Positions 40,364-58,979 of a stretch of DNA of 58,979 nucleotides are shown piece by piece. The DNA comes from an uncultured beta proteobacterium (lineage in GTDB: Bacteria; Pseudomonadota; Gammaproteobacteria; Burkholderiales; Casimicrobiaceae). The stretch covers positions 1-58,979 of the forward strand of contig CAIWHR010000076.1 of assembly GCA_903912485.1 (NCBI GenBank), written 5' to 3'. The notes beneath the pieces are model-generated. The model was not told the origin of the DNA. It saw only the letters and a program-made list of their open reading frames with translations, and did no database searches. Positions within the stretch are counted from its first letter, which is position 1, and each line of letters begins with the position of its first letter. The position numbers were made by a program, and so were the translations under genes.

Positions 40364-40543
40364 AGCAAGTGCCCCATCCGGCCAGGCACCGCCCAGCCAG
40401 CGAAGCGGTTTGGCGAGAAGTTCGAGGGTCAGATCAGCATGTTGGATGAACTTGTGGGCGAGATTGCCCTGGGGCGTCGGTGCTCCGGTCAGAGTCCGGC
40501 TTGAATCCCCCTCCACCTTCGTATAGAATTCGTCGTTCTTTGC

Positions 40544-40562
40544 AGGCGCGTAGCTCAGCTGG
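40544..40562 (+). other. tRNA 5-prime-end-like fragment (acceptor + D-arm only)
   Basis: AGGCGCGTAGCTCAGCTGG matches a tRNA acceptor stem plus D-arm. I could not fold an anticodon arm or T-arm downstream, so this is not an intact tRNA. Confidence 0.3.
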
Positions 40563-40738
40563 CACCACCTTGACATTGTTGGATCGTCAGACGGTAGGTA
40601 GCACTTTTCATAGGGAGATTGCCGCATTCAACCCGTTAAGAACCGGATAGACCGCGTAATTATAAATAATAATTCATAAAAAACGAGACAGAAGCTAGGG
40701 TAAGATCGCGAACACAACCCGACCTCCGGCGATCAAGC

Positions 40739-41365
40739 GTGCGGACCCGACCACGATCAAAGCAGGTGCCGCTCGCGGCGATCACCGCGCCCGAAATGGC
40801 GCCGGCATCCGACAACCAGCGGACGCTGGTCACGGGCATCACCCGGGACGCGGTTCGGGTTATCCTGACCCTACATCCCGTCTTCGCCGTACCCCACCCT
40901 GACGGCGAGGGATGGTCGGTGGTTGCCGGCGAGCGTGGCTTCCTGCTCGCGCGCGCCGTCCTCCGCGCGAACGAGCGAATCCCGATCATTCAAGTCGACA
41001 ATGCGACGGCCGCGCTGATTGGGCCAGCCGACCGCCTCCTGTCGCCGGTACTTTATGATGACCTGCCGGCGACGCGTCATCGGCGATGGACCGACCTGCC
41101 CGCCGGTAAGCCGATGCCGTTCTTGCGAGCGAATCTGGAAGCCAAGGTCGTTGCCCGATTCCGGTCGCCGCCCGCGCGGACCGAGAAATCGCGCGTACCG
41201 GACAACCAAGATGGCGCGGTCGTAACCGGAGTGCCGGAGGCCAGAGCGCCAGGAGCGTGCCGAGGCGCCGGGAAGGCTCCGCCACATGCGGCTGCGCCAG
41301 CTGTTCAAGACGCAGCGCTGCCGGTCGCTACGAACCGCACATCCGATCCACCAGGCAGCGCATGA
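40739..41365 (+). CDS. hypothetical protein with possible ParB/Srx-like N-terminal domain
   Basis: GTG start; 208 aa. GWSVVAGERGFLLARAVLRANERIPIIQVD resembles the ParB-N GxRR..A...ipv motif. The C-terminus is Pro/Ala-rich. Ends 14 nt before the 911-aa gene. Confidence 0.45.
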   Translation: MRTRPRSKQVPLAAITAPEMAPASDNQRTLVTGITRDAVRVILTLHPVFAVPHPDGEGWSVVAGERGFLLARAVLRANERIPIIQVDNATAALIGPADRLLSPVLYDDLPATRHRRWTDLPAGKPMPFLRANLEAKVVARFRSPPARTEKSRVPDNQDGAVVTGVPEARAPGACRGAGKAPPHAAAPAVQDAALPVATNRTSDPPGSA

Positions 41366-41379
41366 CCATGGAATAGCGG

Positions 41380-44115
41380 ATGGCGAATGAACCCCGCTAC
41401 CTCGCCCAGCGGGACTACCTGCCAAGACTCCAATCGGCCATCGCGGAGGTGGCCGCCGGCAGTGCTGCAACCTTCGCGGGAATTCACGCGCGGGTAACGA
41501 CCCTTCTGGCGATCCCTCCCTCGCTGACGCAGCTTCCGCTGGTCCTGCAATCGCTCGCCAGCGTTCTTCCCGTCGCATCGAGGTTCCATCCCCACCTCGC
41601 CAACGAGCTTGACCAAATCGACCAGTGGTGCGGCTTCATCAACTCAATTCCAGCGGAGCATACATTCTGGAAGATGGAATTGTTCCGGGGCAAGAAGGCA
41701 CCGGCCGGAGTGCCGGGCGCGCACGCGACCGGCGCTCCGATGAAGCGCCGCCACAAGGGCATTGTCCTGACTCATCCACTGTGGGTTGCGTTGGGCTACA
41801 CCTCGGAGACGCCGCTCAACACGCCGGCTGGTGACACGCGCCGGTGGGCGTTCTGCAATGTCCAAGCCAATATCCTCGCCGCATTTGTCCAGCGGGCGAG
41901 CCAAGGTGACGAGCCCCACTATCGGATCGGGGATGCGTGCTGGTTGCTTCGGCAGTTCGGGGGCGACTATGCAGGATCGAACGAGGACGCTACCCAAAGG
42001 AACGCGAGGCTCATGCGTCTGCGGTGCCTCGAACAATACGCGGACGCCGGCAGCGCCGACGACCTCTTCGCGGTGGCAAAGCAACAGCATGCCGAACCCT
42101 ATCCAATCGGTCCCGGTGCCGGGGCCTTTGCCGAACTGCTCTCCGACACTTTTGCGCTCAAACACCCGCCGGTCATTCGCCACGTCGAGGCTGGAAAACG
42201 AGCACAGGGCAAGCGGCACCGTGGCCGAACTCGACTCAATGAGGAGATCTATCCGGGCTTTCGCAGCTACGAGCTGCTGAGCGACGGCTTCGGTCGCGAC
42301 GAAGCCGACGGCGGTTTTTCGATCACGCTCAGCAGCAACGAACCTGAGTTCGCCACTGCCGAGACCCTAGATGCCGCCGGCATCGATCCGGCCGAGTATG
42401 CGAGGTCGGATACAACGTGGGTAGGCGTCGAGGGTTTCGCCGAGTTGCGGGGTACTCCAGACGCTCCCGTGGGCAAGACCTTGCCACCGCTGGCGTCAGT
42501 CTATGGCATGGCTCGTGCCCGCGCCCGAGCGCAACGGCTGTCCGCCCAGCGTTTCACTACCCGGCGCGGACGTGTCACAGCACCCGAATTCGCCAGAATC
42601 CTCAGCGTGCTCGATGCAGCCTACGTAGCCGTGTTGCAACGGCGGCAAGCGAACAGCACAGGTTCCGGCTTGACGCGGTCGGCAACTTCGGATCGATTGC
42701 TGCAGGAAACGTTGGTGCTTGCCGGCATCGTCATCGCAACCGGCACCAACCCCGCGGGGGCCATCGCAGTTCATCACTGGCCGGGCAACCCCGGCTCACT
42801 GCCGTCGAACTGGCAGCTTGCCTACAGCCTCGCCGAAGGGGGCATCTGGCGGCGTCCCTGTCTTGTTCCCGTACGCGGTCCGCAAGTACCGCTGCCCGGC
42901 CAAGCGGCTTCCAACATGCCGACGGTCCCCCTCTCCGATCTTTGGGGTGTGGGCAGCAAGCTCTGTTCGCTGGGACCGCAGGGCCAATGGTTCCAGCACT
43001 CCCTTGCCCAGCTGACCGCTGCTTTCAAGCGGAACATCTCGAAGCTGCTGGAGCACGCCGGCGTCACCAAGACATGGCGCTCCCTGGACGCGTTCGCCGA
43101 CCTCCTTCCCGAATGGTTTTCCGGGATGGAGGAAGGAGACCAGCTCAGGGTCGCCTTCCTGTTCGCGCGGAACGATCCGATGGCCGCCGTCCACCTGTAC
43201 TACACGGCGTTCGACCCGTTCATGCTCGATGCCTGGCATGTCAAGTCGGTAACAGATTTACAGAAGCGCCTTGCTGCCAATGGCTTCGTCGTGCGGGCGG
43301 ATGAATTGGCGGATGGATTGTTTTCGAGTTCCCCGGCCGCGAGTATCGGACGCCGCCTCACTGGCGACGACCGCATCCTCGACCCCAAGTTCCTTCGCAA
43401 GACAACGACGACCCTGCGAGAACAGGCTCGGCGACCTGGCACCGACAGGATGGAGGATGTGGTAAGGCAGCACAATTACTTGACCGCCTACGTCGGGGCC
43501 GTTCTGGCCATCTGCACCGGGTTCAGGTCGGTCCGGACGCCGATTCCCGACCTCACCGCGATCGACCCGGAAACGGGATGCATGCCCCTGCAGGAGAAGG
43601 ATTCTGACGGCAACGCGCACGGGCGCATCGTGTGCCTTCCTGACCGTCTGCGTGAGCAGATCGACACGTACCTCACACACTTGCGTCAGCTTTGGAGTTG
43701 GTTGCCAACCAAGACGAGCAAGACACTGGAAGTCGAGGCGACCAAGCAGCGCGACCGAAGCCGGTACGGGTCGGATACTTTCCATCTGGATCTTGGCTGC
43801 ACCCTCTTCTTCCTCAAGATCGTCGAGGGAGAGGTGGTAGCGCAAGAATTCACGGGGGCTCTACTGAAGGCTTCGGTCGAAGAGGTCTGCCCGAAGTCCT
43901 GGCCGTTCGACAACTCGGGGCGGCATTTCCTCCGTTCTTGGCTCAGCCACAAAGAGTGTCCAGCAACGATCATCAATGCAGCGATGGGGCACTCGAACAC
44001 CGGCGAGTTTCCGTGGGCACCGGAATCGGCAATGGACCCCTATCGGTACCGCGAAGTTCTGCTGCAGTACCTTGATCAGCTACTGAATGAACTGCACTTT
44101 GAGGTCGTGCGGTGA
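41380..44115 (+). CDS. giant tyrosine recombinase-like protein (911 aa; catalytic domain C-terminal)
   Basis: C-terminal ~250 aa carry AICTGFRSVRTPIPDL (Arg I), GRHFLRSWL (HxxR), AAMGHSN (His/Trp position) and a downstream Tyr (DPYRYREV). The N-terminal ~650 aa are unassigned. Confidence 0.75.
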   Translation: MANEPRYLAQRDYLPRLQSAIAEVAAGSAATFAGIHARVTTLLAIPPSLTQLPLVLQSLASVLPVASRFHPHLANELDQIDQWCGFINSIPAEHTFWKMELFRGKKAPAGVPGAHATGAPMKRRHKGIVLTHPLWVALGYTSETPLNTPAGDTRRWAFCNVQANILAAFVQRASQGDEPHYRIGDACWLLRQFGGDYAGSNEDATQRNARLMRLRCLEQYADAGSADDLFAVAKQQHAEPYPIGPGAGAFAELLSDTFALKHPPVIRHVEAGKRAQGKRHRGRTRLNEEIYPGFRSYELLSDGFGRDEADGGFSITLSSNEPEFATAETLDAAGIDPAEYARSDTTWVGVEGFAELRGTPDAPVGKTLPPLASVYGMARARARAQRLSAQRFTTRRGRVTAPEFARILSVLDAAYVAVLQRRQANSTGSGLTRSATSDRLLQETLVLAGIVIATGTNPAGAIAVHHWPGNPGSLPSNWQLAYSLAEGGIWRRPCLVPVRGPQVPLPGQAASNMPTVPLSDLWGVGSKLCSLGPQGQWFQHSLAQLTAAFKRNISKLLEHAGVTKTWRSLDAFADLLPEWFSGMEEGDQLRVAFLFARNDPMAAVHLYYTAFDPFMLDAWHVKSVTDLQKRLAANGFVVRADELADGLFSSSPAASIGRRLTGDDRILDPKFLRKTTTTLREQARRPGTDRMEDVVRQHNYLTAYVGAVLAICTGFRSVRTPIPDLTAIDPETGCMPLQEKDSDGNAHGRIVCLPDRLREQIDTYLTHLRQLWSWLPTKTSKTLEVEATKQRDRSRYGSDTFHLDLGCTLFFLKIVEGEVVAQEFTGALLKASVEEVCPKSWPFDNSGRHFLRSWLSHKECPATIINAAMGHSNTGEFPWAPESAMDPYRYREVLLQYLDQLLNELHFEVVR

Positions 44116-47100
44116 TCACGACCACCACCCCCGTGTTGCCAACCGACATCTGGGCCGGATGGGGTCATCTGGATGGCCTCTCGGACATGTTTGGCGCGAT
44201 GACCCAATACGACGAGGCATGGCTCGTGCCGCGTCTACTTTCCGACAAGGCCAGGGCGATCCTGGCCATGGTTGCAAAGACTGCTCCGGAGTTACTTCCG
44301 GTCCGCTTGAGGGGGGGCATCGTAGCCACCGAGACGTTCAGGGCATGGTTGCGGGAAATTGGAGGTCTCATCGAAAGCGCTGAAGAGCGGTTCTGGTACC
44401 AGCGCCGATTTCTCGAGGTGATCGATGCTGGTAACCGTACGGGCCGTTTCCAGATTCCGATTCGCCAGATTCCGCTGCCGCCGATTCCAGACCCGGCTTC
44501 TCCGTTCCAGCAAGTTCGGTTCGAGGCAATGGCCGAATTGCGGCTGCTGCAGTCTGGGTTCGTTGCCTCGCTGGGCAGCGCGACCAAACTGACCGACGAA
44601 GCCCGTTGGGGCCGGGTCATGCTGAGCGCCGTACTGTTCGGTGGCCTCCCACGGGCGCGCTGGCTGATGGCGTTACCCGAGGCGCTGGCGAACAAAGCTG
44701 ACGCCGAACTGCGCTGGCTAGACCTCGTCATCGAGGTCGTAGACCGCCCAGATCGACGCACCAGACGGGTTAGCGATGAGGTCACAGGTTTGGGTGATAC
44801 CACTACCCGCGCCGCTCCGGGTCCCGATCCAGTGCCGCCACTAGTTGCGGACGACTCGGCGGCGACGACGAGCACCCTGGCGGCTACCACGTCGACGAAC
44901 GAATCGGATGCCACTTCAGCCAAAGCGCCGATCCGGGTCTTGCGACGCTGGTTTCCCGATCCGTTGACTCGACTTCTCCTGCGCGAGTTCCAGTGCTCCC
45001 CGGCCAATGCGCCATCGGTAACAGGTGGCACGGATTCCGTTGCCGTCCGGCGGCTCATGAAGGCGTACCTTGTTGCCTGCGATCTCGACGATCATCTTCC
45101 GAGGAGCTTCCGGTCGCTGTCGGACGCAGTCAAGACGCGTCTACACCTTCACCTCCCGCCTTACCTCGTCGAGTATGCGTTCGAGAACTTCGAGAGCACC
45201 TCGCTGGCACCGCATGCGTGGATGAGGCTTGTGAACCCGCCTGAGAGGGTCACCGTCGAGTTGCCGCCGCGCTCGCGTGAGCAACATGCGATGGCCCAGC
45301 TCGGTCCGCCGGCCGAGTCCCGGGATGAGGCGGGTGCCATGGACGGGGCAACGCCTGGCGCCGGCCATGGGGAAGCAGGAGAGGATACGGACGATCCGCT
45401 GCCGCCACAGGAGGCAGAGTTGTGGCCGGCGCAGTTGCTTGAACTTCGCCGGATCGTACGGGGCGACTTCGAGACAGCCTCCGACCGGATAAAGTCATGG
45501 CTTGCCGCGCAAGGCCCCGACCTCCTCCCCAGCGTCAAATGGATCGCCCGCTGGGTCTCCGAGTACCTACTGAAACCCGGTGCCCACAGACACGCGAAAA
45601 GACCCCGCACCGTCTATCAGTTCCTGCGCACCGCCGGAGTGGAGCTCACCGCACATCTCGGTCCTGCCGACCCCACGCGATTAGGCGACGAGGACGAATA
45701 TGCGGACCTCTACGAGGAGGTATTGGAAGAAGCTGGCAACATCAGCACTCGCCGCGTCATGGCCAACGCGCTTCGCTCGTTCCACGCGTTCCTGATGATC
45801 GCAACTCCCGAAATATTGTCGAAGGAGAAGACCGACGCACCATCGGTGGTAAAGGCCGACGATACATCGGTTAAGAAGAGCGGCGCCGGTTCAAAGGAAA
45901 AGATGGACATCCCGTCGGTTGAGGAAACCGGGGTCTTTGTCGTTAGTGGCCGCGGTGGCAGCCGAGTTGATGCCAACGTGATCGGCATCGCTACGTACAA
46001 ACTCGCTATCAATGAACTTCGGAGCACCAACCAGTCCCGCTTGGACCAGGCTGTGCTCGAGGCGCTCTGTCGGGTGGCGGGACTTGGCTTCTTCGCGTCA
46101 TTGCGCCGGTCAGAAGCAATCGGGTTGACTCTCGATGACGTTCTCATTGGTGGGGACGAGGTCTTTATTGACGTTCGTCCCAATCCGTTCCGCTTGCTCA
46201 AGACCAACAATGCACGGCGCCGTCTTCCGCTGCACATCCTCATGCCCGCGGATGAACTGAAGGATTTCCGGCTTTGGGTCGAGAGCCGGCGTGAACAGGA
46301 AGGAGATGGTTCGCGTCCGATCTTTCCCATGTTCACCCGACCGAAGGGCGTACGCGACACCGATCCCCGCTTGGCGTTCATCGTCGCTGCGCTACAAGCA
46401 GCAACTGGCGACCCCTTCTTTCGTTTCCATCACCTACGCCACTCCTTCTCGACTTGGCAGGTCGTTCAATTCTGGGTCGCTGAACAACGGGCACTGCATG
46501 CAGCCATCCCGGATTGGTTCCTCTACACTGAAGACGACTTGGAACGTTGGACGAAGGCCAAGCCCCTGCGCGACCGCATTCTCGGATCAACGCACACGAA
46601 TCGCCGGGCGCTCTTGCAGGTCAGCCACTTCATGGGGCATGGCAGCGCCGACATCACCTTGGGTTCCTACGTCCACCTGCTCGACTTCCTGCTTGGGCGA
46701 GCCGTGCGGCGTGTCGCGCCGCGAATCGAACTTTCCGCGCTCGCGGTCTTGACCGGCCAGACAGAAGCGGCACTCAAACGCCTACTGGCGCAGCACGCTT
46801 CAACATCGACGGCGGCAACCGACGATCCTGAAGCCAATTGGCTCGATGCGGTGTTCATCGGTCCCCGCGGGCCCGGGCGGCCCCATGGGAAGAGGCAACC
46901 CTTGCCCAAGGTGAGTTTCGAGCAACCCCCAAGACTGCACCTGCCAAGCGACCCGTACGCGCGAATGATGCAACAGATGGACGCGGCCAATGCGTTGCGC
47001 GCCTCCCCGACAGGCAATGCGGCGGTCGTCGCCGGCCGCTACGGCGTCCGCGCCGTCACTGCGGCGACCGCAGCCAAGACGCTGAAAAAGCTGCCGCTCG

Positions 47101-47747
47101 GGATTGCGGCCAACTTTCTGGTCCAGCAAGAACCTAACAAAGGTCCTAATGCTCTGCAGGGGATGTCTTCCGGCGGGCAGTTCGCCCCCCCGCGCGGACC
47201 GGCCCAGGAGTGGTTGGCCCGGAAGACGCTTGCCGGTATCGAGCGGGGGAGGCGGGCGGCCGTAGCCCGAAGAATGTCGGCGCGCGCAATGACGGATCGA
47301 ATTCGCAAGACCTTGACCCGGTTCGTGGCCGCTTGGATTCCGGACACCTATCTCGCCGCCCAGTACTTCGAAACTCGTCACGCCTCCGACTGGCTGTGGC
47401 TGCTCGACCAGGTCGAACTTAAGCCAGGCTGCACTCTCGCAGCGCTAATGACGATCAGCCACGTCGCCGGAAAGGGGACCGGTGTGCCGAAGGTTCCCGA
47501 CCAGCGCATCTATTGGCAGGGGAAGCTTTCACGTGGGGTCAGCGCGGCAACAGATCCGGTTATCCTGGCTGCGCATCAAAACCCTTACTATCACGGCAAG
47601 GTGATCATCGACCTCGACCGCGACCGATTGGGACAGATGGCCAATCCGCTGCGGCGCAACGCCAACTTCATTGGAGTGCGGTTGGCGCTGGTAGCCGCGC
47701 TCTGCCTGCCCATCGCGTGGTCAGCAAAGGTACGTATCCCCCGGTAA
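44112..47747 (+). CDS. giant tyrosine recombinase-like protein (1211 aa; catalytic domain central)
   Basis: GTG overlaps the previous stop (GTGA). FFASLRRSEAIGLTLDDV (Arg I), LLKTNNARRRLPL (Lys), FRFHHLRHSFSTW (HxxR), FMGHGSADITLGSYVH (His + Tyr). About 640 aa N-terminal and about 330 aa C-terminal are unassigned. Confidence 0.8.
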   Translation: MITTTTPVLPTDIWAGWGHLDGLSDMFGAMTQYDEAWLVPRLLSDKARAILAMVAKTAPELLPVRLRGGIVATETFRAWLREIGGLIESAEERFWYQRRFLEVIDAGNRTGRFQIPIRQIPLPPIPDPASPFQQVRFEAMAELRLLQSGFVASLGSATKLTDEARWGRVMLSAVLFGGLPRARWLMALPEALANKADAELRWLDLVIEVVDRPDRRTRRVSDEVTGLGDTTTRAAPGPDPVPPLVADDSAATTSTLAATTSTNESDATSAKAPIRVLRRWFPDPLTRLLLREFQCSPANAPSVTGGTDSVAVRRLMKAYLVACDLDDHLPRSFRSLSDAVKTRLHLHLPPYLVEYAFENFESTSLAPHAWMRLVNPPERVTVELPPRSREQHAMAQLGPPAESRDEAGAMDGATPGAGHGEAGEDTDDPLPPQEAELWPAQLLELRRIVRGDFETASDRIKSWLAAQGPDLLPSVKWIARWVSEYLLKPGAHRHAKRPRTVYQFLRTAGVELTAHLGPADPTRLGDEDEYADLYEEVLEEAGNISTRRVMANALRSFHAFLMIATPEILSKEKTDAPSVVKADDTSVKKSGAGSKEKMDIPSVEETGVFVVSGRGGSRVDANVIGIATYKLAINELRSTNQSRLDQAVLEALCRVAGLGFFASLRRSEAIGLTLDDVLIGGDEVFIDVRPNPFRLLKTNNARRRLPLHILMPADELKDFRLWVESRREQEGDGSRPIFPMFTRPKGVRDTDPRLAFIVAALQAATGDPFFRFHHLRHSFSTWQVVQFWVAEQRALHAAIPDWFLYTEDDLERWTKAKPLRDRILGSTHTNRRALLQVSHFMGHGSADITLGSYVHLLDFLLGRAVRRVAPRIELSALAVLTGQTEAALKRLLAQHASTSTAATDDPEANWLDAVFIGPRGPGRPHGKRQPLPKVSFEQPPRLHLPSDPYARMMQQMDAANALRASPTGNAAVVAGRYGVRAVTAATAAKTLKKLPLGIAANFLVQQEPNKGPNALQGMSSGGQFAPPRGPAQEWLARKTLAGIERGRRAAVARRMSARAMTDRIRKTLTRFVAAWIPDTYLAAQYFETRHASDWLWLLDQVELKPGCTLAALMTISHVAGKGTGVPKVPDQRIYWQGKLSRGVSAATDPVILAAHQNPYYHGKVIIDLDRDRLGQMANPLRRNANFIGVRLALVAALCLPIAWSAKVRIPR

Positions 47748-48040
47748 AGCCCTCTGGCATTAAATGGTGAGCCGCTCAAGGCAGCAGGTTACGGCCGCTG
47801 ACGCGGCCTTCGTACTGGAGCCTAATCGGCGGCAGAGCAGGCCCCGTAAAGTCGGACAGGCAGATAAGTGTTGGCTCTGCTCTAAATTACCTGTACTGAG
47901 TGCTATACGACTTGTGCTCGCGATATGTTATGTCTTTCCCCAACAACAAGCCGTTGCCTAGCGACGTAACTGCATCGCACTACCGTCGATCCCAGCGAGC
48001 TGCGCCTCTCATACCACACCTGACAGAATGCCTTCAACAT

Positions 48041-49315
48041 TCAAATTGCATCGGGCGGTGTATCGCGGAAAAATGATGGCGGAAGGATCGCTTGATCAAG
48101 CATATCGATGCTCCGAGGCTCCACACCGCGGTCCGCAAAAAATCCGCGCCAGGTGCGCACGATCACCAACATATCGGTGACCAACGCCAGCGCTTCATCC
48201 TTGGTCAATCCGAACGTCTCGCACTGCGAGAAGATGTTGTAGAGGCTGGCAGCGCGCCCGAAGCGGCCAACCTCCAACGCGAGATCCCGGCGCTCGACCG
48301 AAAGCATCGGCACGGGCAGGATGTCATAGGCAGGCGAGAGCCTCCATCCGCCGCGAGTATGCACGAGCGCGTGGTTGCGGGGGTGATCGTCGTTGTTCGT
48401 GACCATCGCATTGAAGACCATGCGCCGAAAGAGCTCACGTCGGTCGTCCCCGCTCTTGACCGACCACCGACGCAACTCGTCAGCCAGCAACGGGTAGGAC
48501 CAGCGGTCGCGGCCAAGGTAACCGTCCTCGGCATCGAGGACGGTTAACCCGGAAACGAATCCATGGCGCCAATAGGCATGAGCGTCCGGATTCCATTCGC
48601 GGTCAAAGCGGCTAAGCAGCAGGGTGTCCCGCGCGCCGACGCGTTCGAGACGAGTCCCACATACTCGCAGCCCTGCGGTACGCGCGAGTTCTAGCGTCGC
48701 GTATTCGATCCGCTGCAGGTTATGCCGGTCACCCTTCTCGGGCAGCTTCGCCAACCAGATCGAATGCTCATCCTCCACCGTCACCTTAGGGCGGGCGCCA
48801 CCCATGCTGGTCCCGGGCTCCAGTTCCTCGAGCATCTCGTGTGGCAGCCGACCGTGTTCCTCGAGCGTCTCGGCCGCAGCAATCAGGTCCGCCAGCTGGT
48901 GCGTGCGGTTGAACGGCCGTCGGGGCGCCGGGGGAATCACGGTCCGCCCAAAACTCAGGTTGCCGGCACAATCATCAGGACCGTTCAGCAGGTAATCCAT
49001 TTCCCGGATGTCCGCCTCCGACCGTTGGAGCTTGGCCTGAATGACGCGACGACCCCAAGCATCCGGGCTCGCGTCGCGAACGGCACCCGGAATGCCTTTG
49101 AGCTTGGTGAACTTCTGCGGCCGTTCCGAAAGCGGAATGTGGAATGGGTCCAACGCGACGACGTTGTGGCGCGCCAGGTATTTCCGGCCATAGGTGAAGG
49201 TGCCTTCGAAGCTTCCTGCACCGACGCCACGAACCTTCAGCGACGCGCAGGGGACCGTCTCCACGGTTCCGGGCAACTGGATGTAGACGTAGCAGAGTTG
49301 CTCGTCGAGGGCCAC
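48041..49315 (-). CDS. hipA: HipA-family serine/threonine kinase toxin
   Basis: DASPDAWGRRVI, SMGGARPKVTV and NNDDHPRNHAL motifs. 424 aa. Sits 3 nt downstream of the HTH gene. Confidence 0.9.
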   Translation of the reverse strand: MALDEQLCYVYIQLPGTVETVPCASLKVRGVGAGSFEGTFTYGRKYLARHNVVALDPFHIPLSERPQKFTKLKGIPGAVRDASPDAWGRRVIQAKLQRSEADIREMDYLLNGPDDCAGNLSFGRTVIPPAPRRPFNRTHQLADLIAAAETLEEHGRLPHEMLEELEPGTSMGGARPKVTVEDEHSIWLAKLPEKGDRHNLQRIEYATLELARTAGLRVCGTRLERVGARDTLLLSRFDREWNPDAHAYWRHGFVSGLTVLDAEDGYLGRDRWSYPLLADELRRWSVKSGDDRRELFRRMVFNAMVTNNDDHPRNHALVHTRGGWRLSPAYDILPVPMLSVERRDLALEVGRFGRAASLYNIFSQCETFGLTKDEALALVTDMLVIVRTWRGFFADRGVEPRSIDMLDQAILPPSFFRDTPPDAI

Positions 49316-49318
49316 GGG

Positions 49319-49660
49319 TCAGAAGTCGTTGACGTTGGCGACCGTGTGGCGAACGCGCTTGGGTCGGCGCGCGGCCTCGAGAACCTTGCCGTGCTCATCG
49401 GCATCCGGATCAGCGAGGCCAGCCGCGGTGCCCAGCAAGCCGAGCTTCCACAGAACCGCGAAGACCGTCGCGACGGTCGTCCCGGGCGCGCCCTTCTCGA
49501 TCGCGTACAGCGTCTTGCGGGTGATGTTGCAAGCCTCGGCGAGGTCCTGCTGGCTCATCCGACGGCGAATGCGGGCAAGCCGGATGTTTTCCCCGAGCCG
49601 GCTTGCCGACGCGGTCACCTCGAGCGGTAGCGTTGCCACAGAACGCAATTTAATACTCAC
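49319..49660 (-). CDS. hipB: HipB-like XRE-family HTH antitoxin
   Basis: LGENIRLARIRRRMSQQDLAEACNITRKTLYAIEKG is an XRE HTH. Lies immediately upstream of hipA. Confidence 0.8.
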   Translation of the reverse strand: MSIKLRSVATLPLEVTASASRLGENIRLARIRRRMSQQDLAEACNITRKTLYAIEKGAPGTTVATVFAVLWKLGLLGTAAGLADPDADEHGKVLEAARRPKRVRHTVANVNDF

Positions 49661-49726
49661 AACGTTTTATAATGGGTAATAGAATATACTATGTTTGCAA
49701 TTCAAGTCAAGATTTTCCAGGTCATT

Positions 49727-49746
49727 ATGGGTATTATGATACCCAT
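49727..49746. promoter_or_regulatory. palindromic candidate HipB operator
   Basis: ATGGGTAT-TATG-ATACCCAT, 67 nt upstream of hipB in an AT-rich tract. An extra half-site ATGGGTA lies near 49671. Confidence 0.45.
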
Positions 49747-50360
49747 ACCAGTGCAATTCGACCATTGTTCTACCCGTATTTCTGTCCTGCACGACCCTCA
49801 CTTACGCTATCCGAGCCTGACCGCTATCGGCCGCGCCCAGCGCCACGCCGGAAGGCTGAAATCCGCCAGCTAGTGGCGCCCGACACCGCGAGACATACGG
49901 CACCACCCGCCCGACTCGTTGATTCGTGACATCCACGGGTGCGGTCCCACCAGCGCGTTGCCGCCGCCCCAAGTCGCCTTTCCCGCCCAGCACCCGGCTG
50001 GACGCGATGCGCATCTTCGTTTGGGTAATGCTTTTCTTGCTAGACTCAAATGGCAATGACAACGAGTGCTGCAATCCGAGTTCCTTCGAAACCTGCAGCC
50101 GGCCAGGCCGACGCAACGTCGCGCCTATTGGCAATGGTGGGCATCAGCCCACGTGAAGCACCCTGGCCAAGCGCCAGGGGAGCGGTTGGGGGTAGCTTCG
50201 CTTTCCCCGGGGCCGCTCACTTCGCCCGATCCGTCGCGCGCATCAAGGGCAGGGATACGCTCGCCCGATGTGTGCATAACGTCGTCTTCTCGCTTGGCCG
50301 TTCTGGCGAGATCACCTTCGTTCGGGTCGGATCTCGCCAAGCATCGCCCGGAGTCATTGC

Positions 50361-51608
50361 ATGTCCGTACCCACTTCGTTCCCCCAGCAGCTTGGTGCCG
50401 CCCAGGGCATAAACGACCTGTACCCGGCCGACTCGATTCTCGAGCAGATCGTCGAGCTCGCGCGGCGCAATACGGACCTCCCGCCCTCGGCAGTCCTTTC
50501 AGCCGCTTACTCCCACCTAAGCGCGGCATTCGTCAGGGCCGGGTTCACGCTATCACACGGCTCCACCCGGTCGATCTCGCCGAACCTGTACATCCTCGGC
50601 GTTGGTCAATCAGGGTTCGATTTCGAGTCGGCCCTCCAAGACGTTGTTCAAGTGATCCTCGCATCCTCGAAGGTGCATTCGTCCCCGGCAGCTCTGACAT
50701 CCGGCGCGCTTTTCGCGATTTGTGATCACGGCAAGTTCCTGACCGGTGCCGATTCCGGGGCAGCATCGCCATCCGAATTGCAAGCACGCTGTACGGCATA
50801 CCTGATTGCGATGAATAGTGGCGAGTGGCTGCGACATTTGCACTCCACTACCGGCTCCGAAACGCTGCGGGATTACCTCATCCGTGGCTACGGCGGCGGC
50901 ATCTTCATCCAAGTGAAGGGAACGAAGTTGAAGGAGACGGCGCCGGTCCACCTCGTCGTCTTTACGTCATCGCAACAGACGCAATTCTTCACTGCTCTCG
51001 GCGATCATTTCTACACGAGCAGCCTACTCAGGAAGTTCGCCCTCGTGATCGCGGACGACAAGCCGATCCGCAGCCAAGCATTTCCAAGTAGTGACGGCTT
51101 CAAGGACGCGGCGCGACGTTGGGCCTCGGACTGGCAAGAGATCCTTGCAGGTCCGCAAAGCTATCGCTTCGCGCCCGAGGCGGTGGATATGCTGGAACGG
51201 TGGTGGGCCAAACGCATCGGACAGGCCGGTCCGGCCGATGGTTCGCTGCGCCACTATGCCGAACTCGTGCAGAAGTACGGTCTCATCTTGCAAGCGCTTA
51301 TCGAGCCAACCGGTACCGTCGGCCCGGAGGCGGTCACGATCGCAATTTCCGTCGCCGAGCGCCACCTCCATGACCTCCACGTGGCCCAGACGGAACTGGC
51401 AAACGAGTGCGAGGAGCAGCGACTGATGCGGAAGGTCGAGGAGCACATGAAGAAGCATCTCCACGCGACCCGCGGAGATATCATGCGCCAGCTGCGGGGA
51501 GTGAAGACAGCAGTAAAGATGAATGCGGCTCTCGAGGCAATAATGGAGATGAGCACCAATGACGAATTACGTGACCGTGCTCGTGAACTTCGCGCGGCAG
51601 CGCGTTAG
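50361..51608 (+). CDS. hypothetical protein, possibly DUF3987/YfjI-like with degenerate P-loop
   Basis: 415-aa ORF. LYILGVGQSGFDFES sits where a Walker A would be but lacks the Lys. Helical C-terminus. Family call is weak. Confidence 0.55.
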   Translation: MSVPTSFPQQLGAAQGINDLYPADSILEQIVELARRNTDLPPSAVLSAAYSHLSAAFVRAGFTLSHGSTRSISPNLYILGVGQSGFDFESALQDVVQVILASSKVHSSPAALTSGALFAICDHGKFLTGADSGAASPSELQARCTAYLIAMNSGEWLRHLHSTTGSETLRDYLIRGYGGGIFIQVKGTKLKETAPVHLVVFTSSQQTQFFTALGDHFYTSSLLRKFALVIADDKPIRSQAFPSSDGFKDAARRWASDWQEILAGPQSYRFAPEAVDMLERWWAKRIGQAGPADGSLRHYAELVQKYGLILQALIEPTGTVGPEAVTIAISVAERHLHDLHVAQTELANECEEQRLMRKVEEHMKKHLHATRGDIMRQLRGVKTAVKMNAALEAIMEMSTNDELRDRARELRAAAR

Positions 51609-51650
51609 TCATGAACAGGTTCAGGGCCGCGTAGCTGGGCACCTCGATGG

Positions 51651-51691
51651 CTGTTGGACGCTTGTTGGACGCTTGTTGAACGGTTGTTGGA
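51651..51691. repeat. iteron-like tandem 11-bp repeats (TGTTGGACGCT x4, imperfect)
   Basis: Read directly: tgttggacgct tgttggacgct tgttgaacggt tgttggaca. A fifth copy, atgttggacgg, is at 51738-51748. Confidence 0.65.
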
Positions 51692-51852
51692 CAGAGCCAG
51701 CTGGTGTAATCCCTTTGAATTGTTGCGCATTTTCAAAGATGTTGGACGGATTGCCGCTAGCGTAGCGCGTTCGTCACAAGACCACGGTAGACGATCTCGT
51801 CGCTACGAATGTTGATTGGCCCACCGCATATCGTTAAAGTATCCATCTAGCA

Positions 51853-51883
51853 GGAAAATAAAAATCCTCCGACCTTACGGAGG
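51853..51883 (-). terminator. orphan Rho-independent terminator-like hairpin
   Basis: On the minus strand: CCTCCG-TAAGGT-CGGAGG followed by ATTTTTATTTT. No convincing minus-strand CDS ends here. Confidence 0.35.
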
Positions 51884-52169
51884 TGATCCGCCGTCCCGCG
51901 GCGATCCCCTATGAAGCCGGCATATGGTGGCCGGTATCGGCTCTCGGGCCGGCGCGATTCGGCACAGCGAAGCGGAACCACTCCCGCCGCCGAGAACGCA
52001 ATAATCATTGCTCTGTCCAGCATGGGTTGGAAGATTTCGGTATTGACTCTACTTCTGAATGCCCGCACGAGTTCACCACGCCGAACTGGCTGCGGCGGCG
52101 CTTGCGGGACTTCCACGTCGCTTGCTGGCTCCAGGGTGCTACGCAAACACAAAGCGGAGATCGCGAACA

Positions 52170-52439
52170 ATGAAGACGCTCAACATTTACGGGGAACGTA
52201 CCGTTGTCGAGAACCTCGGATTGCTGCTGCGACAGGTGTTGCCGACTGAGCAGCATGGTGGCGTTGGAAAGCTAATTGGCCGGTTGGCAATGTCGCTTCA
52301 CGTCGCCGATTTCCTATCAACGCCTTGGAACGCTCTCACTGTCGACGAGCGTAGTGAAATCCTCCGCGAAACCCATCTGGCGGCCGAAGCGGCGATGGCC
52401 TTGGCTAGTCGGAGACAGGAATGCAGCGAGAAACAATGA
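52170..52439 (+). CDS. small hypothetical protein (89 aa)
   Basis: ATG with GGAGA 10 nt upstream (MKTLNIYGERTV..). No motif recognised. Confidence 0.4.
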   Translation: MKTLNIYGERTVVENLGLLLRQVLPTEQHGGVGKLIGRLAMSLHVADFLSTPWNALTVDERSEILRETHLAAEAAMALASRRQECSEKQ

Positions 52440-52632
52440 TGGTCGGCTGCATCAAAGGTGCGAAAGTAAACGTGGTCAATACTGGACAAGACTCACCGGG
52501 CGCGTCGTCGCCCACCAGCAGCGGTCCCGACGGGAAGCCGTTGAGACCGATACGCGGTGCCGGACTATCAACGCGCGCTGGGCCAAGCGTTCATCGCCGG
52601 GAGCCAATTCAAGGTTTCGCTGAGGATCGAGC

Positions 52633-53046
52633 GTGACAGGCGAAGGCGACGATATCCCCGCAGACGTGCGAGTCTGGATCACGGCGTTCCAGAGTGACGC
52701 TCCCCTGTACAAGTCGTTTCCCTTGATCCTTCCCAATGGCGGACGCGTGACCAAGTTCAATGGCGTGTGCTCGGCCTGCGAACAGCTCATCGACCCGGAG
52801 ATGGTGCGCGGCCGTGTCATGTGGTCGCTGCCCACCGTCGCTACGGTCGAGGGTAACGGCTACTGCATGGCCTGCAAGAGCATCACCCACCTGCACTGCC
52901 GATTCCGTGCCCACGGTACGACGTACAAGGTCGAGTGGCCCGGTGTGGACGGCAGATGGCACGCAAGGATTGCTGCACCGCTATCGCCATGGCGGTTGCT
53001 GGTGCAGCGCGTCGAGCGGCTCTTTCGCTCGATCTCCAGCGTTTGA
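52633..53046 (+). CDS. hypothetical Cys-rich (CxxC..CxxC) protein
   Basis: GTG start; 137 aa. CSACEQL and CMACKS pairs suggest a zinc ribbon. Confidence 0.4.
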   Translation: MTGEGDDIPADVRVWITAFQSDAPLYKSFPLILPNGGRVTKFNGVCSACEQLIDPEMVRGRVMWSLPTVATVEGNGYCMACKSITHLHCRFRAHGTTYKVEWPGVDGRWHARIAAPLSPWRLLVQRVERLFRSISSV

Positions 53047-53458
53047 GAGCTTTTCGCCAGAACGACGTGGGTTCCTATGGCCAGTTTTCCTTCCCCCGAA
53101 GATCCCGGCGGCGGACGCGATCCTCACCGCCCAACTTCGCGACCGCGTCAATGTGGCCGCGGCCGACGCGCGTAAGCCACAAAGAAATGCTACCGGGCGC
53201 TCGGGAAGCAGTGCGACTTGTGCCACGTTTACCGCGACCAAGATCGGTACGCCTGGTCTGTACAATTCGCTGCTCAGGCCATTTGTGAGGTTCAGCGCGG
53301 CGCCCTTACCCAGCATTGCGGCGAGACCGGGCGCAAGGCGCCGCGCGGCGTGGGTCTCGTGTCATCAATTGATGTTGACCGGTGCCGACCGGGCGTTGGC
53401 TTGAGACCGCAAGAGTCCCACACCACGATCGGCTGAGCTGGAGCGTTCGATCCATCGA

Positions 53459-53474
53459 GGTGATCCACTACTAC
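53459..53474. repeat. left copy of the 16-bp target-site duplication GGTGATCCACTACTAC
   Basis: Identical 16-mer at 54860-54875, directly abutting the IS inverted repeats. The exact length is uncertain by 1-3 bp. Confidence 0.75.
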
Positions 53475-54859
53475 TGTCGCGAGTTTTTTGATCTGTCCGG
53501 TTTTGTAGCAAATGAATTGTCCGCTTTTCCTTCCGCGGGCGGGAAGCGGCGCAGGGCGTAGCCCGGAGCCACTTCCCGCCCGGCGGCGGCGTGCCCCGCG
53601 GACCTTCAGGCAGCGCGCTTGACCTTGGGCTTCAGTAGCTTTCCCTCCGCGTTGTAGTCCGCCAACCGGCGCGGACCGTGGAACACCGCCAGGCGCCCGT
53701 TCGCGTAGTGATGCACCCGTACCCGGGCCTTCACGTAGTGACAGCGGTAGCGATCGGCCGGCAGCTGCAGGAACAGATTCTCGTAGCGCACACAGTTGTC
53801 GTGACCGACGGTCCGGTCGGTCTGCTCGCACAGGATGTCGTCGAGGTCGCCGCCGATCCACGGCACGAACGCGCTGCCCGTTTCCCGCGCCGGGACGGCA
53901 AACTCGGCGTTGAAGGCGGGCCGGTACTTGCGCATCACGTAGCGATTGGCCGCCGCCAGATCGCGGATGCCAGCGTAGGCCAGTTCCTTCGGCAGCCGCT
54001 CCTGATGCGTCGCAAACGCCCGCTCCGAGCGCCCCCGGGCCTCCGGCGAGTACGCCGCGATCATCTCGATGCCCAGGTGCTGTAGCGCCCGCCCGAACTG
54101 GGTCGGGTTCGCCTTGTCCACCTGGCCGCCGGCCACCGGCGTGACCCAGTAGTGGCTGCCCCGGTCGCTGTAGAACGAGCAGAACAGCCCCTTGGCTCGA
54201 ATCACCTCGGCCACGCCCCGGAAGCTGCTGCTCGTCCCTTCCTCCGGCACCAGGAACATCGAGTAGTGCTCGTTGGTGGCATCGTCCATCGTCACGATCA
54301 GGTCCCAGACCTGACCCGGCACCCATTCGTGCCGACTGCCGTCCTGGTGCAGCATCATCCCCGGCAGTGCCATCCGTTCCCGCTTCTTCCGGTGCGCACC
54401 CTTCGCCTTCCCCTTGGCCACCAATCCGGACTCCTGCAGCCGCTGCTTGACCCAGCTGTAGCTGCGTTGGCCCCCATCCCGGCGGTACCAGCTATGGAAG
54501 TGCCGCACGTTCCAGCCGGGATGCCGCTCCCGGTACCGCTGCGTCACCGCCAGTACCTCGTCCACTGGTGCCCGCCGCTGCGACACCTGCTCCAGCCGCC
54601 GGTCGATCAGCCCGTCCAATCCTTCGGCTTCATAGCGCACCACGTACCGCCGGAAGCTCCGCTCACACATCCCCAGCAGATGCGCCGCCTCCGCCTGCGT
54701 CAGCCGCCCCACGTTCCACCGCTCGTACGCCTCCTCGAATCGCATCTTCCGGATCTCCTGTAGCAGCTCCGTCCGTCGCATCAGCCACCTCCTTGCGGTG
54801 ACTATGACGACCGGACAGATCACGTGCTACAAATCCGGACAACTCCAAAACTCGCGACA
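53475..54859 (-). mobile_element. intact insertion sequence (~1.39 kb, single DDE transposase, ISNCY/IS1202-like by recollection)
   Basis: Terminal inverted repeats TGTCGCGAGTTTTTTGATCTGTCCGGTTTTGTAGCA (left) and TGTCGCGAGTTTTGGAGTTGTCCGGATTTGTAGCA (right, reverse complement), flanked by a perfect direct repeat. Confidence 0.8.
53606..54781 (-). CDS. IS transposase (HTH + DDE/integrase core)
   Basis: ATG 54781 with AAGGAGG 6 nt upstream (MRRTELLQEIRKMRFEEAY). LHQDGSRHEW, VTMDDATN, FYSDRGSHY and SPEARGRSERAF fit a DDE core. Confidence 0.85.
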   Translation of the reverse strand: MRRTELLQEIRKMRFEEAYERWNVGRLTQAEAAHLLGMCERSFRRYVVRYEAEGLDGLIDRRLEQVSQRRAPVDEVLAVTQRYRERHPGWNVRHFHSWYRRDGGQRSYSWVKQRLQESGLVAKGKAKGAHRKKRERMALPGMMLHQDGSRHEWVPGQVWDLIVTMDDATNEHYSMFLVPEEGTSSSFRGVAEVIRAKGLFCSFYSDRGSHYWVTPVAGGQVDKANPTQFGRALQHLGIEMIAAYSPEARGRSERAFATHQERLPKELAYAGIRDLAAANRYVMRKYRPAFNAEFAVPARETGSAFVPWIGGDLDDILCEQTDRTVGHDNCVRYENLFLQLPADRYRCHYVKARVRVHHYANGRLAVFHGPRRLADYNAEGKLLKPKVKRAA

Positions 54860-54875
54860 GGTGATCCACTACTAC
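54860..54875. repeat. right copy of the 16-bp target-site duplication
   Basis: GGTGATCCACTACTAC, identical to 53459-53474. Confidence 0.75.
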
Positions 54876-55003
54876 TGGCGGACTCGGCCAACTACGCGGA
54901 CAATCCTTGTCCAGGCGGTTGGTAGTGCCCTAGCTACTTCGTCCATCCCGACCGCAAACGCTTTCCCAACCTTAGATCGGGCGCCTGCAGGAACTGCGGC
55001 CAT

Positions 55004-56233
55004 ATGCAAGTCCGCATCCATCGCGGTGCCGCACAGATCGGCGGCACATGTATCGAACTCGTGCACGACGGGGTGCGCATCGCGCTTGACCTCGGCCTTC
55101 CGCTTGAGGGAGATCCAGAGGATCAGTCTCTGGTACCAAGGATTGGAGGGCGGGATCTGGCGGCGGTGTTCATTTCCCATCCGCACATCGATCACTACGG
55201 CCTGCTGCATCACCTGCCTGGGCGAGTCCCAGTCGCAATGGGCGCAGCGGCAAAGCGGATCGTCGCGGCGGCCGCGCCATTCACGCGGCAACGCTTGCAT
55301 GACCTCGATGGCCCTGTGCTGCGCGACCGGCAGGTGATGCAGATTGGGTCGTTCAGCGTGACGCCCTTCCTGGTCGACCACTCGGCGTTCGATTCCTACG
55401 CCCTGCTGATCGAGGCGGGAGGCAAGCGGGTCTTCTATTCCGGAGATTTCCGGGCGCACGGACGCAAGCCGTGGCTCTTCGATGGAATCGTCGCTCGGCC
55501 GCCGAAGAACATCGACGTGCTGCTGATGGAAGGGTCATCCTTGTCCCGCCTGGGCGCAGATGCGCGCTTCCCGACGGAGGGCGATCTCGAGCGTGACCTG
55601 ACAGGTCGAGTGCGCAGCGCTGCCGGTCCGGTGCTCGTACACATTTCTGCGCAGAACATCGACCGGGTCGTGACCTTGTATCGTGCCGCCAAGCAATCAG
55701 GCCGGACCTTGGTAATCGACCTCTACTCGGCGGCCATACTGGCGGCGACGCAGGGTGCCACCATCCCGCAATCCAACTGGCCGAAGGTTGCACTCTACGT
55801 GCCTCAAGCGCAGCGTCGCCAGATCAAGCGACACGGCTGGTTCGACCTGCTGCAGGCGCACACCGCGCACCGGATCTTTCCCAAGGGGTTACGGGCCCTG
55901 GCATCGAATGCCGTGATCCTGTACCGTCCGCTTATGATGGGCGATCTCGAACGAGCGGATTGCATGGCGGGTGCGCGTTTCATCTATGGGCAGTGGCTGG
56001 GTTACCTCGACAAGGGAAGTTACGCGACCACCCGGGAATGGCTGCGACGCCATGGCATCACGTTGGAGCACGTGCACACTTCCGGCCACGCCAGCCCCGC
56101 CGACCTGAAGCGCTTCGCCCGCGCGCTTGCTCCGAAGGCGCTGGTGCCAATTCACAGCTTCGCGCCGGAGCTGTACCCGCAACTCTTTGCAAACGTCGTG
56201 CCACGGGCCGATGGCGAGTGGTGGGCGCCCTAG
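55004..56233 (+). CDS. metallo-beta-lactamase-fold nuclease, beta-CASP-like
   Basis: FISHPHIDHYG (HxHxDH), VDHSAFDS, FYSGDF, LLMEGS, and C-terminal HTSGHASPADLKRFARALAPKALVPIHSF (beta-CASP motif C-like). Confidence 0.8.
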   Translation: MQVRIHRGAAQIGGTCIELVHDGVRIALDLGLPLEGDPEDQSLVPRIGGRDLAAVFISHPHIDHYGLLHHLPGRVPVAMGAAAKRIVAAAAPFTRQRLHDLDGPVLRDRQVMQIGSFSVTPFLVDHSAFDSYALLIEAGGKRVFYSGDFRAHGRKPWLFDGIVARPPKNIDVLLMEGSSLSRLGADARFPTEGDLERDLTGRVRSAAGPVLVHISAQNIDRVVTLYRAAKQSGRTLVIDLYSAAILAATQGATIPQSNWPKVALYVPQAQRRQIKRHGWFDLLQAHTAHRIFPKGLRALASNAVILYRPLMMGDLERADCMAGARFIYGQWLGYLDKGSYATTREWLRRHGITLEHVHTSGHASPADLKRFARALAPKALVPIHSFAPELYPQLFANVVPRADGEWWAP

Positions 56234-56279
56234 GTATCCAGCACGCCCCATTGGTTTTATTGACCCCTGCGGAGACGCC

Positions 56280-57221: not shown

Positions 57222-57475
57222 TTTGAATCGAGCATGATCCCGCCACACCAGCAATCCCTGGTCAGATAGGTGGCAACCTCGCCTTGCAAGATTTGGCGGT
57301 TCTTTGCCCGCGCGCGCTGCTCGGCGCCACCGTCTCTCCGGTTCTTGGCCATCGCAGCTCTGCTCTGCCCTTCCTCTCACAATCCGTCGATTCGTGCAGT
57401 TCCACTGCGTTTCACTCGCCGCCATCAAGATGAGCAATGATCACCCTCAGGAGCGCGCCCATACCGGACGCGCTA

Positions 57476-57519
57476 AACAAAAAAACGGCCTCGACTTGCC
57501 CTTTGGGCAAGTCGAGGCC
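57476..57519 (-). terminator. strong Rho-independent terminator of the 226-aa gene
   Basis: Perfect 15-bp stem GGCCTCGACTTGCCC/GGGCAAGTCGAGGCC with a 3-nt loop. On the minus strand it is followed by GTTTTTTTGTTT. Lies 36 nt downstream of the stop at 57555. Confidence 0.75.
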
Positions 57520-57554
57520 TGGTGGAAGGGGTTGATCGACGCCGACGGATCGGT

Positions 57555-58235: not shown

Positions 58236-58979
58236 TATGTCTAGTCTCCTGTTGTCCCGGATGGGACGCTGTTCCCCGATTCGGGGCGGTTGTCACCGAG
58301 CCGAAATTGCCCCGTGACGCCGGCCTTGCCTGTGTTATGGCCTGCGGCGTTGAATAAGATCCCGGTGCGTGACGCCCAACGTTCCGCAGTGCGTGATCTG
58401 TCAACTTCACGCACGAGACCTCGGGGATCTCTGGCGCGCTAGAGGAAACGCTGCGCAGCGTTTGTCGACTCCCCACGCAGGCAGCGGGCTAGAACGCCCG
58501 CTATCCGTCCGGGGAAAGATCGGTCGAAGTGACTCGTCCGGTTTCCCGGCAGCACGTCCTGCGCTGGTCTCCGGGTCCAGAGGTCAACCTCCACGGCATC
58601 GGCCTTGCCTAGGAAATGGCCGACGGGAGTGAATAAGATTTCGTCAGCGACGGCAGGATCTGTCTACGATGCGTCGGTCGAGGATGATTGGAGATTGTGG
58701 CGCTACGTCGAGGCTGGGCGCTAGGAGACAGACCAGATCCTTCTGAATCTTTCGCAGAGAATCATGAGCTTATTGCTCTTGATACTCGCTCCGGTAACGA
58801 TCGGGGGCCAACGCACCGGGCCTTTCCCACAAGTGGCGGCCCATCCTGCGCCATAGATTGGTGGCGACGATCGCTTCGTCGCGACAATATGCCCTGAAAT
58901 GGGAATAGTGCGGTGTTCGGGCAACGTCGTAGCCTCGGAAAGGTAACTTGATCATCCGCCTGTCGCGTTCGCGACGAAC

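Follow-up and report, generated by a model that had tools for sequence, protein, structure and literature searches.

Multi-recombinase elements such as Tn554, SE, GInt and RIT are poorly understood, yet they carry resistance and virulence genes. In this report we describe an operon of three genes, orfA, orfB and orfC (hereafter A-B-C), that lies beside a displaced half of a tRNA-Val gene in the DNA of an uncultured beta proteobacterium of the family Casimicrobiaceae (NCBI GenBank assembly GCA_903912485.1, contig CAIWHR010000076.1, positions 1 to 58,979 of the forward strand; this whole stretch of 58,979 nucleotides is called the window below). A family of integrative genomic islands has this operon as the conserved core of its left end, and the island in the window sits in tRNA-Val(GAC). 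It adds a much larger and differently built variant to the multi-recombinase integrative elements at tRNA genes, and it occurs in environmentally abundant genera, among them Polynucleobacter, Halomonas/Vreelandella, Marinobacter and Geobacter.

Among the described systems, SE elements carry an intA-tfp-intB-srap operon at their left end, all components of which are required (PMC10214605). They share with the A-B-C islands a large recombinase with a full catalytic set, a recombinase-fold protein without the catalytic motif and small DNA-binding auxiliaries (PMC10214605), as well as a recombinase of ordinary size (found in relatives of A-B-C) and a module placed at one end of an element that is target-specific and apparently non-conjugative. 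Unlike in SE, however, the small gene comes first here, the ordinary integrase lies on the opposite strand, convergent, or at the other end, and the small partner is ParB-like rather than TnpC-like. The A-B-C proteins are also far larger (~900 and 1100-1200 amino acids), the target is a tRNA gene with a duplicated half of 33-41 nucleotides, and the hosts include Beta- and Deltaproteobacteria. It is by described gene order and protein sizes that A-B-C is set apart from SE, and no Pfam or NCBIfam family match was obtained.

GInt islands, in which all ginABCD components are required (PMC5385486), likewise have an operon of recombinase-fold proteins, with a degenerate GinC, and a small DNA binder at the 5' end of an island of variable cargo (PMC5385486). 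However, GInt has three integrases of ordinary size followed by a small helix-loop-helix protein, 10-11-nucleotide direct repeats and non-tRNA targets, none of which is found with A-B-C. In Tn554, two tyrosine recombinases, one of ordinary size and one large, are joined by a small accessory protein, all three being needed for site-specific insertion (PMC10214605, PMC3414803), but this transposon belongs to Firmicutes and Actinobacteria, its TnpB has ~630 amino acids, it lacks a ParB-like gene and a tRNA target, and its gene order is different. We liken A-B-C to SE, GInt and Tn554 because of the mixture of one recombinase of ordinary size, one large one, a degenerate partner and a small binder. 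A preliminary description of the window, made from the sequence alone, had doubted that Tn554 or the BIM modules would fit, and with good reason, since gene order and protein sizes differ from those of Tn554, SE, GInt, RIT and BIM; its view of BIM as paired recombinases was mistaken, because BIM consists of one recombinase and an SMC-domain protein (PMC3414803). No SMC-like protein was found by Pfam among the proteins of the window.

Islander-type islands share with the A-B-C islands an intact and a displaced tRNA gene (tDNA) in the same orientation, a putative crossover in the anticodon loop and, in the Polynucleobacter locus L017, an arm-binding integrase beside the intact tDNA (PMC4383910). 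The difference is that here the 5' half of the gene (33-41 nucleotides) is duplicated, as in 159 of the 3,919 islands of the Islander census (PMC4383910), and that the giant A-B-C genes stand at the opposite end, outside the classical scheme. A literature search found no description of the A-B-C module, which is undescribed but widespread.

A conserved operon at a tRNA-Val junction

In the window, a small gene is followed by two large frames (Table 1), and the GTG start of orfC overlaps the TGA stop of orfB by 4 nucleotides (GTGA). This is the arrangement that had been reported earlier, a ParB-like gene and then two overlapping frames of 911 and 1211 amino acids, and the list of open reading frames (ORFs) bears out both the coordinates and the overlap. 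A-B-C is a conserved, translationally coupled module. A scan of 185,579 genomes, one per species, returned 126 relatives of OrfC, and at nearly every locus with enough sequence a homolog of OrfA is followed by a homolog of OrfB and then by OrfC. The trio is kept as an operon in ~50 loci of Beta-, Gamma- and Deltaproteobacteria, whose hosts include Polynucleobacter, Thiogranum, Thioalkalivibrio, Arhodomonas, Halomonas/Vreelandella, Marinobacter, Geobacter/Trichlorobacter and Desulfobulbia, among others. Searches of 72,556 plasmids, 50,697 phage records and 2.9 million viral contigs found no relatives of the module, and an origin from a plasmid, phage or satellite was rejected on this ground.

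The second and third genes are also found fused in nature: P0106 is a single chain of ~1,800 amino acids with an OrfB-like and an OrfC-like part, which argues that OrfB and OrfC act as one complex. Three further proteins, P0146, P0160 and P0022, have a similar length (~1,780-1,840 amino acids) and look, without individual comparison, like fusions of the same kind.

In each of the 11 close-family loci (L001/2, L003/6, L007, L008, L011, L012, L017, L019, L023 and L033 are the relatives concerned), which belong to several genera, 160-250 bp separate the operon from the same tRNA-Val junction; in the window the tRNA half is ~165 bp upstream of orfA. The junction has been kept in spite of unrelated cargo and of proteins that share no more than ~30 % identity. 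The tRNA-like fragment that the preliminary description had noticed near 40.5 kb is real, being the 5' half of tRNA-Val(GAC) with a 6-nucleotide deletion in the D-arm. Its sequence does not vary among 11 junctions and agrees with the intact tRNA-Val(gac) gene of L017, and in every junction the similarity to the tRNA ends right after the anticodon loop, TTGACAT. We infer a crossover within this loop, where a 7-nucleotide core is flanked on one side by the anticodon stem and on the other by an imperfect element-side half-site (Table 1); the homology between L017 and L011 also ends exactly at this putative core. Standard tools pass the fragment over: ARAGORN found no tRNA in the window, and Rfam likewise fails to detect the truncated gene at the junction.

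Between the core and orfA lies an element-side arm with the AT-rich tract that had been described at this place and a conserved motif, GCGAACACAACC, made up of near-invariant columns; the motif is not repeated in the window above chance. On the host side, a sigma-70-like promoter points into orfABC with no terminator-like site in between, and a -10-like box stands at the equivalent position in other attL (left attachment, att) junctions. From its sequence and position, we take this site to be the former promoter of the host's tRNA-Val gene, now displaced.

When the attL copies were compared (window, L001, L003, L007, L008, L011, L012, L017, L023 and L033), deletions were seen at one spot of the displaced halves, of 0 nucleotides in L003, 1 in L011, 3 in seven loci and 6 in the window. 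If crossover takes place in the anticodon loop, an island that excised precisely would restore a tRNA-Val gene with a damaged D-arm, and such damage could lock the island in place. A search of the window for a second att copy, a tRNA gene or terminal repeats that might mark the right end found none, so the island, of at least 18.4 kb, either continues beyond the contig or has lost its right end.

Islands carrying the operon are mobile

In Polynucleobacter L017 an intact tRNA-Val(gac) gene lies 11.7 kb downstream of the displaced half and in the same orientation, and the island is a precise insertion of 11.66 kb. The host DNA of L017 and L011, which carry different A-B-C subfamilies, is common exactly up to the junction, and L007, L019 and L023, which share A-B-C with L017, have cargo that departs from that of L017 immediately past orfC. 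Metagenomes were scanned for contigs in which the left host flank runs straight into an intact tRNA gene; of the 52 returned, ~45 join the left and right flanks of L017 directly; the flanks overlap by ~42 nucleotides in these empty sites, and one contig is 91-95 % identical to the flanks of L017. The boundaries in L017 together with the ~45 empty sites make the segment that bears A-B-C a precise, polymorphic insertion in the anticodon loop of tRNA-Val. A-B-C thus has a fixed place at the att end of mobile islands and marks that end.

The preliminary description had pointed to related genomes as the place to look for an empty site and for the ends of the island, and beyond the window for a repeat of the junction. 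The 11.66-kb island of L017 has its counterparts in the metagenomic empty sites, and a second, intact copy of tRNA-Val is present in L017. The features by which a tDNA island is recognised, namely an intact tDNA, a co-oriented displaced fragment and an empty site, come together in L017; the window holds the displaced fragment only. The concern that the region might prove immobile in relatives is answered by the polymorphic insertion in L017. As for the suggestion that the genes may be the integration module of an undescribed class of genomic island, an undescribed trio at the end of a mobile island is what we find; that it would be the integration module as such is not supported, given the integrase and excisionase-like (Int/Xis) genes of L017 and 31 further loci, which are taken up below. 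A-B-C can serve as a marker for islands that replace the 5' half of a tRNA gene, which annotation pipelines based on the PF00589 threshold may miss.

A more distant subfamily appears to have another target, the 3' end of tRNA-Arg(CCG). In its member L059 a 15-nucleotide direct repeat (5915-5929 and 19590-19604) overlaps the CCA end of this tRNA gene and bounds an element of ~13.7 kb. The same target was considered for L061 and L068 and rejected, since the tRNA gene lies downstream in both but only L059 has a detectable repeat.

Predicted proteins of the operon

OrfC is predicted to be a true tyrosine recombinase, equipped with everything that tyrosine-recombinase chemistry requires. The residues R666, K697, H773/H774, R776, H843 and Y853 are invariant in 19 of 19 aligned family members, so that the full catalytic set attributed earlier to the second large frame, R-K-H-R-H-Y, is present there in canonical order. 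Its sole Pfam match is to PF00589 (amino acids 663-782, 26.7 bits), just short of the gathering cutoff of 27.1, and it matches a PHROG integrase at E = 1.5e-10. A word-indexed search of 5.8 billion proteins gave 22 relatives, all of them 1000-1200 amino acids long. Many invariant positions are also found in the N- and C-terminal regions, which indicates that the entire giant architecture is conserved.

The fold of OrfC was judged from the AlphaFold (AF2) model of its closest homolog, P0001, which is 51 % identical and was modelled with a predicted local distance difference test score (pLDDT) of 75. Foldseek matched this model to XerH, XerA, Cre, IntI and the integrase of Tn1549 over ~360-440 columns, with E values of 3e-4 to 1e-2, and the alignment of ~400 columns spans the core-binding and catalytic domains of full-length XerH and Cre. 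What is left without any match is ~490 amino acids at the N-terminus and a C-terminal extension of ~330, both conserved. The unassigned N-terminal region of 640-650 amino acids that had been claimed for both large proteins is accordingly an overestimate for OrfC once the alignment to XerH and Cre is taken into account, and stands, at ~660 amino acids, for OrfB; the extra C-terminus of OrfC, put at ~330 amino acids, was correctly recognised and has no structural match. Outside the core-binding and catalytic span, neither Pfam nor a PDB profile search nor Foldseek gave a family match. Searches of the PDB with the single sequences of OrfB and OrfC gave no match and those with the OrfC profile nothing useful, and Pfam scans of the two terminal regions at permissive thresholds returned only noise and weak helix-turn-helix (HTH) matches in one homolog.

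OrfB is best described, from its sequence and a model, as a predicted degenerate partner with a recombinase fold, not dependable as a catalytic recombinase. The protein of the window carries R716, K740, H849, R852, H871 and Y890, and the claim of a full catalytic set is correct for it; it does not extend to the family of 41 relatives, in which R716, K740, R848 and H871 are invariant, H849 is kept in 30, R852 in 34 and Y890, the equivalent of the nucleophile, in only 25. The motifs TGxRxV, DKD, NxxRHxLR and MGHW mark the C-terminal ~220 amino acids. OrfB has no Pfam domain, and no Pfam, NCBIfam or PADLOC model fits either OrfA or OrfB. A word-indexed homolog search with the OrfB alignment, limited by the word index, returned the same four proteins only; an exhaustive profile search returned 1,224 clusters (at 50 % identity) when E <= 1e-3 was required and 612 at E <= 1e-10, and almost all of these proteins have 780-940 amino acids.

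The assignment of OrfB to the recombinase fold is made on three weak but concordant lines. Its profile matches XerA (4a8e) weakly, at E = 0.011. A model built from four sequences, poor overall (pLDDT 45) and confident only over amino acids ~670-911, is matched by Foldseek to the folds of IntI, 3nkh and XerH with E = 0.02-0.1 and a probability of ~1. Finally, a local profile alignment by hhalign between OrfB and the catalytic domain of OrfC is collinear and weak (E = 0.04); over the whole length of the two proteins, neither profile comparison nor BLASTP detected similarity.

OrfA, homologs of which stand upstream of orfB in ~45 loci, is a predicted DNA binder of ParB/HTH type. The window protein has no Pfam match and only a faint hint of ParB in NCBIfam and PHROGs, and a profile of 29 homologs matches Spo0J (1vz0, E = 2.2e-5), Noc (7ol9, 7e-4) and 4umk (3e-3) over both the ParB N-domain and the HTH part, bearing out the ParB-N-like motif noticed in the 208-residue protein. 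The arginine patch GERRxRA, which binds CTP, is not conserved in the OrfA family, whose consensus at this place is only AGxR..A, with no invariant column.

Possible roles of the operon

In our preferred reading, an A-B-C complex would act on the junction DNA of its own island. OrfB and OrfC would form one complex, with OrfC supplying the active tyrosine and OrfB serving as a recombinase-fold partner that often lacks it, and OrfA could bring this complex to the element-side arm beside the genes. There it would cleave and exchange strands at the attachment junction in the manner of a tyrosine recombinase, helping to integrate and excise the island at the anticodon loop (CCACC-TTGACAT-GGTGG), and would probably cooperate with the conventional Int/Xis pair at the other island end. 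To this reading, that A-B-C takes part in att-site recombination together with Int and Xis, we assign a probability of about 40 %. It is favoured by the fixed proximity of the operon to the att core across deep divergence. Also in its favour are the conservation of the trio and the B-C fusions, the invariant catalytic set and Xer/Cre fold of OrfC, the precise insertion in L017 with its empty sites, the lack of any other recombinase-like ORF within ~10 kb in at least 16 loci and in the window, and the parallel with SE and GInt.

Several observations weigh against it. At ~830 bp from its intact tRNA gene, the island of L017 encodes an integrase of 421 amino acids with Arm-DNA-bind_2, SAM-like and PF00589 domains, its start overlapped by a 74-amino-acid excisionase-like ORF; homologs of this pair, 43-49 % identical, are found in 31 further loci, and a canonical Int with a xis-like partner would suffice for integration. 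The tyrosine of OrfB is dispensable (25 of 41 relatives have it). The two modules need not travel together, for L076 and L077 have Int proteins that are 87 % identical and OrfC proteins that are 24 % identical (OrfB also ~24 %), and L035 and L045 are 91 % identical in the int region and 65-73 % in A-B-C. We found no bounded element in which A-B-C is the sole recombinase, and the right end of the island under study is not in the window. Overall, the divergence of Int and that of OrfC are correlated (Spearman 0.80).

In the main rival reading, Int and Xis alone would integrate and excise the island and A-B-C would act on the excised circle, through multimer resolution or stabilisation, or by nicking for helper-conjugative mobilisation. 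We regard this as somewhat less likely than the first reading. It accounts for the canonical int and xis-like genes in 32 loci, beside the intact tRNA gene in L017, and is favoured by the independent shuffling of the Int and A-B-C modules. It also draws on a set of compact elements. L035 and L040 share only positions 6367-15274 of L035, at 90 % identity, and this confinement of homology defines an element of ~8.9 kb; such elements, of ~8.7-8.9 kb (L035 6367-15274; L040; L076 4777-13446), occur in Halomonas, Vreelandella and Marinobacter and contain only A-B-C, a 106-amino-acid ORF, int, the excisionase-like ORF and a Cro-like HTH regulator. Since A-B-C is the sole core content apart from Int, it must serve the element itself, and in a circle it would presumably sit downstream of the outward-reading right end. 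Recombinase-like relaxases and partition genes at island ends are precedents for a role of this kind. Known relaxases, replication proteins and ParA partners, however, show no resemblance to the A-B-C proteins, the plasmids, phages and viral contigs searched lack the module, many loci have no Int nearby, and an action on the circle leaves the fixed distance between operon and att core across deep divergence unexplained. The right end of the compact elements comes after '...GGCAGATAACGACC'.

That A-B-C is instead the self-sufficient integrase or transposase of an element of its own, with Int and Xis contributed by a co-resident or fused element, seems improbable to us. In its favour, the Int module is exchangeable, and no other recombinase-like ORF is present in at least 16 loci with ~10 kb of sequence on each side, nor in the window, over 40 kb upstream and 11 kb downstream; targeted Pfam scans of downstream ORFs gave varied cargo only. 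In an Int-less Vreelandella subgroup, homology is confined to the A-B-C block. The junctions of this block are not crisp, however, and show no terminal repeats, so that transposon-like ends were rejected for it, and an element bounded around A-B-C alone is just what was not found. L017 has two tRNA-Val copies only and is therefore not a tandem array of elements. Moreover, int stands beside A-B-C in 32 of ~60 informative loci, far above chance, and the int pair is nearly always convergent with orfC, at ~700 bp in 13 loci.

Least probable of all is that A-B-C is host-beneficial cargo (anti-phage defence or DNA surveillance) on ordinary tRNA-integrating islands, for which speak the defence-type genes close by (mREase_IV and PDC-M05A upstream, hipBA downstream) and the ParB-like domains of some defence systems, and against which stand the lack of PADLOC matches, on which a known defence system was rejected, the invariant position of the operon at the att junction, where true cargo varies between orfC and int, and the compact elements, in which A-B-C is the only content apart from Int.

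Beyond participation in att-site recombination with Int and Xis, we tentatively propose, at somewhat less than even odds, that A-B-C is a mechanistically distinct kind of heteromeric giant tyrosine-recombinase machine, made of an active subunit of ~1100-1200 amino acids, an often inactive subunit of ~850-900 and a ParB-like adaptor, which would define an unrecognised and widespread family of proteobacterial elements and carry out a reaction outside the Int/Xis scheme. Candidates for that reaction are an integration that replaces the 5' half of a tRNA gene and a recombinase-based step after excision. The compact ~8.9-kb elements offer a tractable system in which to ask why a second, giant pair of recombinases stands beside a normal Int/Xis pair, and what role the ~800 amino acids of conserved but unassigned sequence play.

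Cargo and flanking genes

Table 1. Features of the junction, the operon and the cargo in the window
Feature	Position	Strand	Description
Sigma-70-like promoter	40501..40529	+	TTGAAT-17-TAGAAT; 1 site found against 0.3 expected
Displaced 5' half of tRNA-Val(GAC), attL	40544..40576	+	Position 1 to anticodon loop; 6-nucleotide D-arm deletion
Putative crossover core	40565..40581	+	CCACC-TTGACAT-TGTTG: anticodon stem, 7-nucleotide loop, imperfect element-side half-site replacing GGTGG
Element-side arm	40577..40738	+	Core to orfA; AT-rich tract 40655-40690, conserved motif GCGAACACAACC at 40708-40719
orfA	40739-41365	+	208 amino acids, GTG start; predicted small ParB-N + HTH-like DNA-binding protein
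orfB	41380-44115	+	911 amino acids; predicted divergent tyrosine-recombinase-like C-terminal domain (~690-911), ~660 amino acids before it without assignment
orfC	44112-47747	+	1211 amino acids, GTG start; predicted tyrosine recombinase with all catalytic residues
Island cargo	47748..58979		Runs off contig end; no right end, tRNA or integrase found
hipA/hipB	48041-49660	-	Cargo directly downstream of orfC
415-amino-acid ORF	50361-51608	+	No Pfam domain; 27 % identical homolog (L001 13847-15253) directly after orfC in L001 and L002
Insertion sequence (IS)-like ORF	53606-54823	-	HTH_29/HTH_28; flanked by 22-nucleotide direct repeats at 53458 and 54859
MBL-fold protein	55004-56233

The hipBA pair reported downstream of orfC is confirmed (48041-49660). 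In L017 the variable cargo between orfC and int includes hipBA and a GIY-YIG gene, and the hipBA of the window stands at the same position. The L017 pair (13528-15143, +) is 24 % identical to that of the window and has the opposite orientation, which suggests independent capture in a cargo hotspot between orfC and int. The 415-amino-acid ORF, judging from its homolog in L001 and L002, the closest relatives of the window locus, may be a fourth conserved gene of the subclade that these three form.

Further downstream, a 40-nucleotide repeat occurs at 58321 and 58600 in copies that are 78 % identical (58321-58639). The IS-like ORF and the repeats are probably the 'IS' and the 'iterons' of the preliminary description.

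Upstream of the junction, a type IV restriction-like (mREase_IV) PLD-helicase with an N-terminal MazG domain is encoded at 36302-39367 (+) and a PDC-M05A-type nucleotidyltransferase at 39935-~40360 (-). These two defence-type genes, just left of the junction, may be part of an adjacent island that occupies the same tRNA locus.

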